Source: Lophium mytilinum (Eukaryota). From it: a stretch of DNA of 64,000 bases. Numbering within the stretch: the stretch's first letter is position 1; every line of letters begins with the position of its first letter. Location of the stretch: assembly GCA_010093605.1 (NCBI GenBank), contig MU004197.1, positions 868,001-932,000 of the forward strand, read 5' to 3'. The translations under genes were made by a program, and so were the position numbers. Below, piece by piece: positions 33,025-38,937 of this stretch. The notes under the pieces were generated by a model, which worked only from the letters and a program-made list of their open reading frames with translations, was not told the origin of the DNA and made no database searches.

Positions 33025-35445
33025 ATGATGTCGCGTTTCCCCTTGTCACCACGAGTTGCTTTCAGTGTGCTTTGTTCTCTTTTCCAAACAAGTGATTTGA
33101 CTGTGAATGTCGGCTTCCTGTACAGTAACGAAACGTCTTGCTAAGATAGTTGAATCAAAACGATACTTCTCCTTGACTGTTCCTAGCTGTCTGTCTTCTC
33201 CTAGCACATCTCACAGGCTCCAAACCTGCGCACAACGAGACCTCACGCGTCCACTCTCACTGCTAGGGCCTCGTCGCCGCCTCCTCTCCCGCTCGTACAC
33301 CACTACCTCAACACACCTCGCCCAGGCGCTTCAGCACCAATCTACCGATCCTCCTCAAAACACCCACACAGAAACCGAAGACACTATGTCGGAAGCTGTA
33401 TATAGCACGGAGACTCTGAAGGAAGCGCATGCGCAGCCTTATCGGAGCTTGGAGGGCAAGGTCAACCCATCTTTCTTGAAAGCTCTGGACAAAATGGGCT
33501 ACGAGTAAGAAATCCCTGGCCAAGATCTTTATCGCGTGGTGAACTTGCACAGTAGAATGATTGAGGCTTTATCATCTCAGTTGCGCGGGGGTACAAATCT
33601 TTTTGGAGGCAGAGACTATCAGTTCTGATAAAACATTGCTTCTGCGAATCCTTCACATACCTTGGACGGAATGTGGAGATTTCACAGTTCTCCATGCGCG
33701 CAAACCACCACCAACCAATCTAATGAAACGTTCGCTAATGTGCCTTCTGCAGATACATGACTCCCGTTCAACACAAAGTCCTAACTACCCTACCCTCATA
33801 CTCGAGCGACTGCCTAGTGCAAGCAAAGACTGGTACAGGAAAGACCATTGCCTTTCTTCTGCCAGCCCTCCATGCCCTTCTCGAAGCAAAGACTGTTCCA
33901 AAGGGACAGGTAGGAATTCTGATCATCTCACCGACTCGTGAACTTGCCCTTCAGATTGCCAAAGAATGTAACGAGATCACTGCCTGCCTTTCCACGCCTA
34001 TTCAATGTCATACTGCCTTCGGTGGAACTGCCCGAGCGAGCAACCTCAAGAAGTTTCTGAACGGCAACCCCACGGTACTTGTCGCAACTCCAGGACGTCT
34101 CAACGACTATCTTGGAGAGGAGGAAGTAAGACGGAAGTTCGGGCACATTCGCACGGTCATCTTAGATGAAGCCGACACTATGTTAGAGGCTGGCTTCCTT
34201 CAGGACATCAAGAAGGTTCTCAGGCAGCTACCGCCGAAGAAGAACGGATGGCAGGGTATGTGCTTCTCTGCCACTGTTCCCGACAAGGTCAAGGACGTTA
34301 TCAGCGTGGTGCTCAATCCTGGCTACACGCACCTTACGACTATAGACAAGAGCGAGGCACCGACGGTAGACAGAGTACCGCAGTTCTCTATCATCGTCCC
34401 AGCAGCGAAGGACGTATTCAATGCACTTTATGCATTGGTAAAACTTGAGTAAGTGTTCTTCACCCCTATGCCATTGATGTGCTAATTCTCTTTTAGACAT
34501 GCTCAAAATCCAAAAGATTTCAAGACAATCATATTCGGCACAACCGCAAATGGCGTGGCTCTTCTGGCAGCTATGTTTGAAGCAGCAATGCCAGAGCTGA
34601 AAATCTACCAGCTGCACTCTCGCCTCTCTCAGAACGTTCGAACCAAGACTACCAACGACTTCAAGGCCGCCTCTGCAGGCCTCATGTTCGCGTCCGATGT
34701 CATTGGCCGCGGCATGGATTTCCCCAACGTCGGTCTAGTTATTCAGCTAGGGCTGCCGGCGTCCGGCGAGCAATACGTCCATCGTGTTGGCCGAACAGCG
34801 CGTGCTGGAAACGAAGGCCGCGCAATCATCATCCTCACCCAGAATGAGTCCTACTTCACCAACACGAACAGACAACTTCCAATCAAACCATACACAACCG
34901 ACCTCACTTCTAGCATGGCATCTGCGGCTCCGATTGTTGAGAGAGCCTTCGTTTCCGTCGACGAGTCTGTCAAGGGCAAGGCGTACCAGGCTTGGCTCGG
35001 TTTCCACAAAACCCTCATGAAGAACCTGCGCCTAGATGTTGGAGGTCTGGTTCAGACAGCAAACGACTACGCCAAAGCCATGGGCTGCCCGGAACCGCCT
35101 ATGGTGGACAGGAAAGTCGTTGGCAAGATGGGACTGAAAGGCGCTCGTGGCTTAAATGTAGGCACCGTTACCCGGGATGCGCCGCCCGGTGGTGGCCAAA
35201 GAGGTGGACGGCCTGCTGCGAATGGCAGAGGTGGCGCTGGGGCTGGAGGCGGTGCTGGAAGGGCTACCAGAGGAGCAGAGACGGATTCCCGTCCCTCGTT
35301 CGGCTCTAGCGAAGGAGCTAATGGCAATAACGGCCGTGGGCGTGGAGGTGCACGAGGAGGTGCGCGAGGAGCTCCTAAGAGACGCGGTGGTGCTGGTGGT
35401 GTTGATCTCGATGGTCGCGTCTCCAAGAGACCAAGTGCGTTTTAG
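33025..35445 (+). CDS. DEAD-box RNA helicase, Mss116/CYT-19-like, with RGG-rich tail; start uncertain (33025/33028 via an intron at about 33065-33150, or 33107, or 33386)
   Basis: Q motif GYE|YMTPVQ, AKTGTGKT, SPTRELA, ATPGRL, DEAD, SAT, RGMDF and HRVGRTAR; AYQAWLGF C-terminal extension; introns 33505-33752 and about 34449-34496. Confidence 0.92.
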
Positions 35446-35851
35446 TGAGATGGTGTTGCCTTTCCTTAAAAGTCTTCATCCTTGTTTAAGGGTTTGGAAG
35501 TGGGCCTTATGCAAATCTGGCGATATGACTCCTCGTGGTAAGTGGACGTGGCGTTCAGGACTTGTATTATACCAATAGACATAGATCGGAATACGAGGGT
35601 TTGGAATCGTCGAATGGTACTATGATACGCCAGTAGGCTAAGTCAGGCCGGCAAGGCTGGCAAGGCATATTTATGCTTAACTTACTTCGGATCATCGTCT
35701 TGAATATCCAGAGATCAGTCCGGCGCCCTGGCGCCGGTGATAGGCTATCGTCTTTCTCTGCAGTGCAAGGCTGATTGTGGCGAGGTGCAGGAGCGCCAAT
35801 GCAGGTAATTCTCAGCCTCGTGAGGAGCTTCCAGGTTGCAACACGCTGACA

Positions 35852-37815
35852 ATGACGATTCAACAACCTCAAACAGAAGCTATGGAGGAAGAGCAGCTGT
35901 CGTACGTCGATCGACTTGCCAGTAAGTGTATTCGCTTTCCTCTGTGCTCATATACACATCGTGTACCCTTCATGCTAGATAGCCATGGGCAAGTTTCTTT
36001 ACCTAGGTCTGTGGACTTTGTGCATCTTGAGGTGCCAGCAGATGCAGGACTTTCCTTTGGAGAAGCGTCAAGGGCGTCATACAAACAGATGGGTTTGCAT
36101 CGAGTCAAATTCGTTGAGACACCGACACCGGCGATCAGTATACGTGAGAGTGCCCACTTCTTTTGGATTGCAATTGAACCCTTTACAGATCTCTGCCGCA
36201 GTAGAAATTGGCGACCGCCAATTTACACTCCCTGGGTGGCCCACCGTACATTTGAAAACTTTAGATGCATGTGCACTGTTTCCATCAATGCAGAGATGCA
36301 TTTTAGAAACAGCTGGCATTCCGAAGAATATAGAGCTACTTGGCATGCCGGAGACGAAGTTCCTGACACGAAAGCAGAAGCACTTGAAGATGTCGCTAAA
36401 GTTGCCTTTGAATGGTACACACTCAATACCGATGTCCCATCTTTCAACACTATGGCATTGGTACCTCCAGAACGAGAGAAGAGAGCGCAAGAAGACACCA
36501 AATATTCGCAGACCTATGATGACACCCAGAGCTGCAGGATTTCACATGGATCAAGCCGGGCGACATTTGCCACTGCAAAGTCCCGCGTCTCTTATGCATC
36601 TTCTGGTCTTCAAGGTCTTTCCCGTAACAGGTATAATATTCCTTTGTCTATAATCTTCAACTTTGATTATTAAGACAACTTGGATATTGACGGATAAGCA
36701 TTTTGTAGAGAACAGAGCCCGTGGATAAAACATCTTGATGATCGCGGCTTGATTCCAGACCCTTTCGACGAAATGAATTGGTCTGGACGAGGTCAGCATG
36801 CGGAATTCGGAGAGGCCGAAGACGACCAAATTGCAAACCTCCTCATACCTGAGAAGATTATAGGCCATTCTCAGACGGCTGTAGTCGAGAGCGTAGTGTG
36901 CAGAAAAATCCGTCTCGCTCGTAAGACGATCAACTGCATTGGAAAGATGAAACGTGAAGATGCCATCAAAGAAGTGGAACATCTCCAAAAGTTGCAACAC
37001 TCGCACATCATCCGAGTGGTGGGGAGCTACGTTCAGAAGAAAACCCTGTCCATACTGTTATATCCGGTGGCATCATACAATCTGGAAAGCTTTCTGGAGT
37101 TCGCAGACGAGCTTGAAAATAAAACAGAGAGGAACTCCAGTTTCACCAACTTGTGCTACTTCTTTGGATGCCTCTCTAACGCCATGGACCACATACATCA
37201 GCAATTCACCAAGCACATGGATATCAAGCCCAAGAATATCCTCGTCCAACACCAACAAATTCCATTTGGCCGCTCCAAGGTCTATTTCGCAGATTTCGGA
37301 ATATCGAGGGCATACAAGAGCGTAGCAGAGGCCGAAACGGATTCTCCAACGCCGTACACAAGGATGTATGCCGCTCCAGAGGTGGTTGATCAAGATACGC
37401 GCGGGTTCAGTGCAGGTTAGTAAAATTCCTCCCTACCATTCTCACTGGTGTCAAGCCGGACAAAGCTCTAACACACACCATGCTAGACATATTTAGTCTT
37501 GGTTGTGTCTTCGCCGAAATCCTTGCTGTGCTGAACTTTCAGCGCCAATCTCTGATTGACGTTCGAGCCCGCAATACCGACGGGGACACATCTTACCAGG
37601 CAAACATCTCGCCCATAGCAGACTGGCTACGAAGCGTTCCGCTTGTCGACGTGCGGTCCCTTAACTTGGACCACTACAAGTCAAATATCATCACGATGAT
37701 GAGCTTCGACCCATCTTCCAGGCCTTCCTCTGATGACATTATGGCGAGATTCGGAGGCTATGTATGCTGTAATGAAGGACCTGAGCCTTTCGTAAGAGTC
37801 GCGGAACCCACGTAA
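35852..37815 (+). CDS. Ser/Thr protein kinase with an N-terminal dsRBD-like domain (exons 35852-35921, 36189-36630, 36709-37415, 37487-37815; 515 aa)
   Basis: Kinase motifs RLARK, KEVEHL, HMDIKPKNIL, ADFG, YAAPE and A|DIFSLGCVF; intron phases (1, 2, 1) join three ORF-track ORFs into one frame of 1548 nt. The kinase call is firm; the dsRBD call is by eye. Confidence 0.8.
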
Positions 37816-38406
37816 AAGCTGGGGAGTGACTATGAGTGTAAGTTGGATAAAAAATACAAGGCTCCGAATCTTCGGTCTGAAAATGTTACGGAGGCGAATT
37901 TTTGTCTTCCAGATTTGGAGAAATCTATCTTTTCAATTTCCTTCTCAACTAGCTTTGACCTTACCTTTCCCGAATACTTACCCAAAGATACCTTTGTATG
38001 AACATCGGACCAGACTGTACTTCTTTCAAGACATTTATTATCCCTGTATAATCATTGAACATGTTGCTCCTTCCATCTCTTCTGTGCGACGACTCGTCTT
38101 TTAGGTCTGAATAGTCGCTGTAAAGAGATGATCGTCGTCGCCAAGGGATTGTGACCCGAGAGGATTGAATGCCTAATATCTCTTAGGCTATAGCCTCATC
38201 TTGGCAACGGGCCTCCTTCCAACAACGTACTTAGCCGTCCGTATTGGTACCACTAACCCTCAGCCTCACTTGGCAAGGGTACCAATACTCAAAAGATGCG
38301 GACGCGCCTCAAAACCTCACAGCTCACGACCGTCAACAATACGCGTCTTACCCAAAAACATCCCTTACGCGCTCTGTAAACGTCTCATCCCAGACTACCA
38401 TTAACA

Positions 38407-38937
38407 ATGGGCCCGCCCAACAAACCCCGCCTCGAAATCGCCATCTACGCGACCAAAGAACCAGGCATCTACACCTACGCCCTCTTCGAATCCCCCAAGA
38501 GCACCAAGAAACTCGTGTCCAGCGCCACCGTCAAGCACAGCGTGCACAACAAGCTCACGTTCACGACAGAGGGTCTCAACCCCGTGACGCCGTGGCGCTA
38601 CGAGCGCGTCGAGATCGACGACGTCCGCATCGAAGACGACCTACTCGTGCGCGTGATCGTGGGGAAGGTGTGGTCTACAGCGACGCTGAAGATGTTCATT
38701 GGCATGGTGCCCGTGCCGGTTGATGGCGCGGGCGGGCTCTCGAGTCAGACGTGGGTGCGGGATGTGCTGGGGTGGGCGAGGAAGTGGACGGTTGGGAGTT
38801 GGGACGAGATGGAGAAAAAGGCGCTGGAGTATGTAGAGAGGAAGAAGAAGGAGGGGAGGTGTGGGGCTGGGGCTGAGAATTGGGACCTGGGGATTCCGTT
38901 GCTGGATTTGCATAATGGGAAGGAGATCGTTGCGTAG
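38407..38937 (+). CDS. Small fungal protein of unknown function
   Basis: 176-aa ORF with C/G-ending codon bias; pattern RLEIAIY...YTYALF...WRYE...LLVRVIVGKV...VPV...QTWVRDVL...W...ALEYVERKK...P.LDL...KE resembles a recurring ascomycete family (recalled, not verified). Confidence 0.8.
   Translation: MGPPNKPRLEIAIYATKEPGIYTYALFESPKSTKKLVSSATVKHSVHNKLTFTTEGLNPVTPWRYERVEIDDVRIEDDLLVRVIVGKVWSTATLKMFIGMVPVPVDGAGGLSSQTWVRDVLGWARKWTVGSWDEMEKKALEYVERKKKEGRCGAGAENWDLGIPLLDLHNGKEIVA

Follow-up and report, generated by a model that had tools for sequence, protein, structure and literature searches.

The 64,000-nucleotide (nt) stretch of Lophium mytilinum DNA analyzed here (NCBI GenBank assembly GCA_010093605.1, contig MU004197.1, positions 868,001 to 932,000 of the forward strand; referred to as the window, with positions counted from its first letter) contains one gene at 35852..37815 on the forward strand, already listed by NCBI as the 562-amino-acid (aa) "kinase-like protein" P0001. 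L. mytilinum is a wood fungus, and its lineage, as looked up, is Dothideomycetes, Mytilinidiales. In P0001 a protein kinase domain is preceded by a head, residues ~63 to 150, that probably has the fold of a double-stranded RNA (dsRNA)-binding domain (dsRBD). The kinase was annotated before (the Pfam assignments precomputed for P0001 are kinase models only), and the dsRBD-like head was not. The original prediction, made from the DNA letters and their open reading frames (ORFs), had proposed a dsRBD fused to an active kinase, as in vertebrate PKR, and a possible role in sensing mycoviruses.

Gene structure and transcript evidence

The features of the gene, all on the forward strand, are as follows.

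35852..35921, + strand: exon 1, residues 1 to 23 and the first base of codon 24, with the start codon at 35852; translation as in P0001.
35922..36047, + strand: intron 1 as annotated, 126 nt, GTAAGT...GCAG, implied by P0001.
36048..36163, + strand: first part of exon 2, residues 24 to 62, a leader with no recognized fold; intron in the original prediction.
36164..36427, + strand: dsRBD-like domain (predicted from Pfam and ESM Atlas leads), residues 63 to 150, WIAIEPFTDLCRSRNW...VAKVAFEWYTLN.
36428..36630, + strand: Ser/Thr/Arg-rich linker, residues 151 to 218, which holds the family motif TFATAKS (residues 196 to 202, 36563-36583).
36631..36708, + strand: intron 2, 78 nt, GTATAA...TGTAG, 28% G+C, phase 2; junction used in P0001.
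36709..37415, + strand: exon 3, with NWSGRGQH (36776-36799), GHSQTAVV, K290 (36923-36925), HMDIKPKN (37214-37237), DFG (37292-37300), and APE (37373-37381).
37416..37486, + strand: intron 3, 71 nt, GT..AG, absent from one 2786-nt contig of sequencing run X1.
37487..37815, + strand: exon 4, the kinase C-lobe (DIFSLG, SSRPS), the C-terminal CCNEGPEPF tail, and the stop codon at 37813-37815.

A scripted join of 35852-35921, 36048-36630, 36709-37415, and 37487-37812, beginning with the ATG at 35852 and followed by the stop codon, gave a translation identical to P0001. Introns 2 and 3 are both GT..AG introns, and their removal restores a single frame into the kinase. The start, the stop, and these two introns had been placed by the original prediction as they are in P0001. 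Its first intron, 35922-36188, was placed correctly at the donor (35921/GTAAGT) and incorrectly at the acceptor, which in the annotation is 36047.

Contigs from a public sequencing run (X1), whose RNA label is a guess, were compared with these junctions, and a spliced joint was counted only if the shorter side had at least 31 letters. One 2786-nt X1 contig lacks exactly the 71 nt of intron 3, which is bounded by GT..AG, and its shorter side runs to 255 letters; the presence of this intron-less contig indicates that X1 contains complementary DNA. X1 contigs have no cover at 35598-35863, 36035-36047, and 36631-36706, and these intervals give no evidence either way. At intron 1, contig record 3 consists of 35904-35921 joined to 36048-36630 and runs uninterrupted across 36189; its short side of 18 letters is below the bar, and it agrees, as a hint, with the annotated acceptor at 36047. 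Record 2 covers 35864-36034 unspliced, and the 35921/36189 joint is absent from the X1 contigs. The reading frame cannot choose between versions of intron 1, since it is kept with no intron, with one of 126 nt, and with one of 267 nt.

The annotated join reads ...SYVDRLA-R-LSFGEAS...(47 aa)...EPFT-DLCRSRNW, so that use of acceptor 36047 rather than 36188 places 47 extra residues (RLSFGEAS...IAIEPFT) between SYVDRLA and DLCRSRNW. Because the annotated acceptor is 36047, the first helix that the original prediction had read across its own junction, "SYVDRLANLCRSRNW," is removed. The dsRBD-like segment itself survives the corrected intron because it lies wholly within exon 2 (residues ~63 to 150), and with the annotated intron helix 1 of the domain would start near EPFTDLCRSRNW.

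Whether exons 1 and 2 belong with the kinase exons was judged from the reading frame, from base composition, and from relatives of P0001. The frame of 35852-36630 has no stops, and in 0 of 2,000 shuffles was it stop-free. All six frames of this interval are stop-poor (48 stops versus a shuffle mean of 78.8, standard deviation 6.8); a second forward frame is open at 35979-36653 (224 codons) and a reverse-strand frame at 36077-36541 (154 codons). None of five ORFs read across the gene in the remaining frames or from the reverse strand had a Pfam match at an E value of ≤0.1. Counts out of 119 or 120 given here and below refer to the best 120 of 554 relatives (119 without P0001). In local phmmer alignments, 74 of 119 relatives begin aligning at P0001 residues 219 to 232, at or just past the start of exon 3, and the other 45 extend into the linker encoded by exon 2, none of them upstream of residue 135. 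Of the 120 family members, 21 (one of them P0001) have the motif T[FYW].[ST]A.S at a distance of 41 to 86 aa before NWSGRGQH. Exon 2 is thus tied to the kinase, because this family motif sits in exon 2 at the usual distance for the family.

Two observations count against a single fused gene. The joint of exon 2 to exon 3 (36630/36709) is absent from the X1 contigs, and G+C content at third codon positions (GC3) is 0.42 to 0.44 in exon 2 (36048-36630) versus 0.56 in exons 3 and 4 (36709-37815), a comparison of short segments; the low value in exon 2 fits a younger, weakly constrained, or differently derived coding sequence. An alternative is that the main product is a kinase encoded by exons 3 and 4 and translated from M240, just before NWSGRGQH, with the long isoform being minor or a construct of annotation. 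The missing joint and the 74 relatives that align only from residue 219 on would fit such a product, as would short family members (P0011, P0039, P0041, P0096, P0120, and P0035; 335 to 376 aa) that begin 10 to 18 residues before NWSGRG. Against it stand the family motif in exon 2, the frame kept across the GT..AG pair of intron 2, and an annotated model that joins both parts. Contig record 3 ends at 36630 (mean depth, 9.09) and record 4 begins at 36707 (466.9), but these depths are whole-contig means, which are no basis for ranking the parts within one gene, and more than 1.2 kb of record 4 lies in the next gene; neither the depths nor the contig ends were used for or against a kinase-only transcript. 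We consider a kinase-only product quite improbable, and exons 1 and 2 very probably form one fused gene with the kinase exons. The claim that an N-terminal module and a kinase are encoded in a single gene is thereby upheld by the four-exon model of P0001, in which the Pfam kinase profile scores 110.3 bits.

The kinase core and its family

That score, for Pkinase (PF00069) over P0001 residues 267 to 540, compares with a cutoff of 31.7 bits, and for exon 3 the profile match has an E value of 1.3e-23. The catalytic motifs named in the original prediction were all located in P0001: the beta3 lysine K290 (LARK), the alphaC glutamate in IKEVEHL, HMDIKPKN (residues 387 to 394) as the HxDxKPxN motif, DFG (413 to 415), and APE (440 to 442). 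DIFSLG and the arginine of SSRPS are also present, and from these motifs the kinase looks catalytically competent. The glycine loop is degenerate (GHSQTAVV), which is a family trait: 110 of 120 members share it, and GxGxxG is found in 9 of 120. H.D[ILV]KP.N and DFG are each present in 119 of the 120 listed members and [AS]PE in 118.

A word-index search returned 554 proteins at an E value of ≤0.001, the best nonself match having an E value of 4.4e-102 with 46% identity, and the best 120 show 41 to 53% identity across 50 to 75% of the query. The organisms named among these 120 (Patellaria, Lindgomyces, Paraphoma, Glonium, Mytilinidion, Alternaria, and others) are, we take it, all Dothideomycetes. 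The prekinase motif NWSGRGQH matched 114 of 120 as a regular expression, and a CC..GPE tail is present in 13 of 120. Identity over the core is 41 to 52% in alignments with family members, examples of which are P0003, P0004 from Patellaria atrata, P0021 (Paraphoma), P0077 (Mytilinidion), and P0080 and P0081 (Lophium); unlike P0001, other members carry other extensions or none, and the N-terminal module of P0001 is found in 0 of 119. Accessory Pfam accessions among the best 120 are PF00621/PF06395, PF13894/PF00096, and PF08518. Among nine long relatives there are PF00621/PF06395/PF15411 (4 of 9), PF03835 (2 of 9), and ankyrin (1 of 9). From their accessions we take these families to be RhoGEF/CDC24, zinc-finger, GIT_SHD, Rad4-type, and ankyrin domains. 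Two proteins, P0126 and P0127 (1765 and 1682 aa), join Rad4 domains to the kinase core and may be merged gene models. The family keeps a conserved core, the prekinase motif FDExNWSGRGQHAEF plus the kinase domain, and behaves like a scaffold on which accessory modules are exchanged from member to member.

The class of the kinase was compared with that of PKR by a sequence search of the PDB with exon 3. The best match was MYLK4 (E value, 7.9e-12), followed by NEK7 and DAPK1; a chimera containing PKR (6npy; E value, 1.3e-8) ranked about 40th of the 60 listed matches, among which GCN2, PERK, and HRI were absent. By sequence, then, this kinase falls outside the eIF2-alpha class, as the original prediction had also suggested in likening it to a filamentous-fungal family, and eIF2-alpha is not expected to be its substrate.

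The N-terminal head

Evidence for a dsRBD-like fold in the head came from a profile search and from a protein language model. DND1_DSRM (PF14709) was the only family among 24,736 Pfam models to match the 90-aa domain at an E value of ≤10 (E value, 0.079; 13.7 bits), and the alignment covers domain residues 8 to 42, placed on profile positions 8 to 42 of 80 only. The dsrm profile (PF00035) did not match the head, Pfam gave nothing for exon 2 at an E value of ≤1, NCBIfam gave nothing for the head, and a PDB sequence search with the head listed only DNMT3B at chance level (E value, 0.24). The ESM Atlas (7.7 million clusters) has an entry identical to P0001 throughout, together with a structure model (predicted template modeling score [pTM], 0.59; mean predicted local distance difference test score [pLDDT], 0.61). 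In an Atlas structure search with residues 60 to 155, 8 of 10 rows were of the dsRBD or RNase III type, with template modeling (TM) scores by query of 0.55 to 0.65 over 72 to 84 aligned residues and with annotations that include dsrm, DND1_DSRM, Dicer_dsRBD, DSRM_DHX29, "DRBM domain-containing," and RNase III. A control search with residues 1 to 66 gave no dsRBD-type structure rows (0 of 10; TM, 0.31 to 0.46), so that no second dsRBD-like segment was seen. The Atlas feature search with the head returned dsRBD-type sets in 5 of 7 cases (0.82 to 0.86), one of which, a LIX1 set, we presume to be of this type; the top match (0.86) was a cluster of viral (Pisuviricota) polyprotein fragments. Taken together, the subthreshold profile match and the language-model structure suggest that residues ~63 to 150 adopt a dsRBD-like alpha-beta-beta-beta-alpha fold, which we regard as fairly probable.

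Several points weigh against this reading. The DND1_DSRM score of 13.7 bits lies below the cutoff of 25.7 bits. The Atlas rows all fall below the bar at which the tool names a family, a feature score below 0.9 being a lead only, and a TM score above 0.5 carries little meaning for short stretches. The feature search with residues 1 to 66 still listed dsrm-type clusters at 0.76 to 0.77, scores under the noise bar that may reflect surrounding sequence context in the embedding. AlphaFold2 run without an alignment gave a pLDDT of 30.7 for whole P0001 and 49.0 for a 98-aa domain, the latter all-helical; neither model was informative. The profile match, the language model, and the reader that made the original prediction probably respond to the same cues and are not independent; these cues are a hydrophobic pair followed by W..P.Y, an F.C.C.V strand, and K.EA.E.VAK.A. 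Finally, because the module has no relatives, neither conservation nor selection can be shown for it.

Sequence searches mark the module as an orphan, detected in one species only. Exhaustive phmmer against 1.84 billion representatives matched the head only to P0001 itself and to P0002, a word-index search for longer proteins with the head returned self only, and a search of viral contigs with the head returned none. Among the 119 family relatives the head module was present in none (best E value, 3.1; local phmmer --max). P0002, a 1950-aa low-complexity tandem-repeat protein, reached an E value of 4.3e-15 by summing six stretches and was taken as spurious. Its repeats are ~40 residues long and rich in Ser, Val, Pro, Arg, and Cys, and it draws other spurious Pfam matches (FbpC_C_terminal, Prok-JAB, and TniQ).

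An orphan head with subthreshold fold leads could also be no dsRBD at all, being instead a young, fast-evolving, or largely unstructured extension in which a short low-information motif is matched by chance. The lack of homologues other than the spurious P0002 is in keeping with such an extension, as are the sub-threshold rank of every fold lead, the failure of single-sequence AlphaFold2 to give a dsRBD fold, an exon 2 that lacks the GC3 rise of exons 3 and 4, and the dsrm-type features drawn by residues 1 to 66 under the noise bar. It accounts less well for the fact that the single weak match among all the Pfam models falls in the dsRBD clan, or for the 8 of 10 dsRBD/RNase III-type structure rows against none of 10 for the control stretch, and the length of the stop-free frame favors coding that has been maintained. 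We judge this alternative to be unlikely, though the strongest of those considered. With respect to the original prediction, a dsRBD-like N-terminal domain thus holds as a probable fold on the strength of the DND1_DSRM and Atlas leads, and a significant profile match was not obtained.

Whether such a head would bind RNA was considered from its composition and motifs. RNA-binding dsRBDs are basic and contact the RNA backbone through KKxAK at the start of helix 2 and through a GPxH loop. Residues 63 to 150 have an isoelectric point (pI) of 5.47 and a net charge of −3.9, with 9 Lys plus Arg and 13 Asp plus Glu. Helix 2 begins TKAEALEDVAK, in which one of the three lysines of KKxAK is kept in the best register, and the loop corresponding to the consensus GPxH reads VAHRTF. 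Classical dsRNA binding by the head consequently appears doubtful. Given this acidity and the loss of most of the basic motif for RNA contact, the head more likely serves as a protein-contact module than as a high-affinity dsRNA clamp.

The dsRBD-like domains of the type B class (with those of DND1, DHX29, and LIX1; Pfam clan DSRM) offer a comparison. In type B dsRBDs, RNA-contact residues are weakly conserved or lost, and these domains mediate protein contacts or dimerization. The same fold is predicted for the head, which differs in that its sequence matches none of these domains significantly; we know of no kinase of this family that is joined to a type B domain or to one of the DND1, DHX29, or LIX1 type. 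A type B character for the head is a proposal drawn from its motifs.

Relation to PKR and proposed role

The arrangement of P0001 was compared with that of PKR (EIF2AK2). In both proteins a single chain would lead from a dsRBD-type head at the N terminus through a flexible linker to a C-terminal Ser/Thr kinase with its catalytic motifs, and a PKR-like architecture is in this sense probable. The two dsRBDs of PKR are canonical, basic, and above the Pfam dsrm threshold, whereas the Lophium head is one acidic, subthreshold dsRBD-like domain; the PKR kinase is of the eIF2-alpha type, whereas the Lophium kinase scores better to MYLK4, NEK7, and DAPK1 than to the PKR chimera. The likeness to PKR is one of architecture only and not of descent, of kinase class, or, so far, of ligand. 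A literature search on dsRBD kinases, PKR, fungal kinomes, and mycovirus defense found no fungal dsRBD-kinase. According to a passage of PMC5025754, fungi have no PKR, and the main text of a 2010 survey of fungal kinase-associated domains (PMC2838846) does not contain the terms "dsrm," "dsRNA," or "double-stranded"; a bioRxiv preprint (10.64898/2026.09.15.751652) concerns an RNase III and no kinase.

The explanation that we favor, by a modest measure, is that of a family kinase with an orphan dsRBD-like head in a noncanonical role. One transcribed and spliced gene encodes a soluble Ser/Thr kinase, 562 aa long, that belongs to the large family described above with its swappable accessory modules. 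Its species-specific head (residues ~63 to 150), probably with a degenerate dsRBD fold, would be tethered by the flexible Ser/Thr/Arg-rich linker of ~70 aa and may serve to contact other proteins, to self-associate, or to autoinhibit, and in this way localize or switch the kinase. The protein would then resemble PKR only in the general sense that a sensor or adaptor head regulates a kinase through a linker.

A different possibility is that the head is a working dsRBD in a convergently assembled, dsRNA-activated kinase and that mycoviral or other nonself dsRNA bridges two molecules, leading to trans-autophosphorylation and a defense or stress response. The dsRBD-like fold leads from Pfam and the Atlas would agree with such a mechanism, as would the PKR-like layout of head, flexible linker, and active-looking kinase and the Pisuviricota polyprotein cluster as the top feature match. 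Much speaks against it: the acidity of the head, the single retained KKxAK lysine, one dsRBD-like copy versus two in PKR, and a kinase that is not of the eIF2-alpha type. The module is known from one species only, which would be odd for a useful antiviral sensor; precomputed Pfam assignments list PF00035 or PF14709 in 0 of 120 relatives, and no immune-type (nucleotide-binding leucine-rich-repeat [NLR]) fusions were found among the 9 long relatives. We therefore regard this mechanism as improbable, and dsRNA or mycovirus sensing by the L. mytilinum kinase, as put forward in the original prediction, is unsupported. A bolder version, in which the head is a recently captured dsRBD, possibly from an RNA-virus polyprotein, that still binds dsRNA, and in which the PKR principle would have arisen independently a second time, is in our estimation a long shot.

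Fungi are thought to handle dsRNA via RNA interference (RNAi) and RNase III enzymes. A dsRBD-type head on a kinase would make the protein a cheap candidate, open to direct test, for a dsRNA response that runs through a kinase, and a captured head that binds dsRNA would add a protein-kinase arm of fungal antiviral sensing beside RNAi, built on a non-eIF2-alpha scaffold. Even if the head does not bind RNA, the gene would illustrate an expanding lineage-specific kinase family that acquires regulatory heads, and it suggests that sequences lacking detectable relatives can carry a dsRBD-like fold. The significance of the finding is tempered by the restriction of the module to one species, where nothing points to its conservation.

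Neither of the flanking genes suggests a functional link to the kinase. Upstream, at 34486-35445, lies the 3' part of a helicase gene with a Helicase_C domain (E value, 1.2e-20) and a long Gly/Arg-rich (RGG-like) tail; a 2103-nt X1 contig of this gene (record 1) ends at 35597. Downstream is a DUF6914 ORF at 38380-38937 (E value, 1.1e-26). The X1 contig of kinase exons 3 and 4 continues for at least 1263 bases through the DUF6914 gene, so that both genes are present on one contig.

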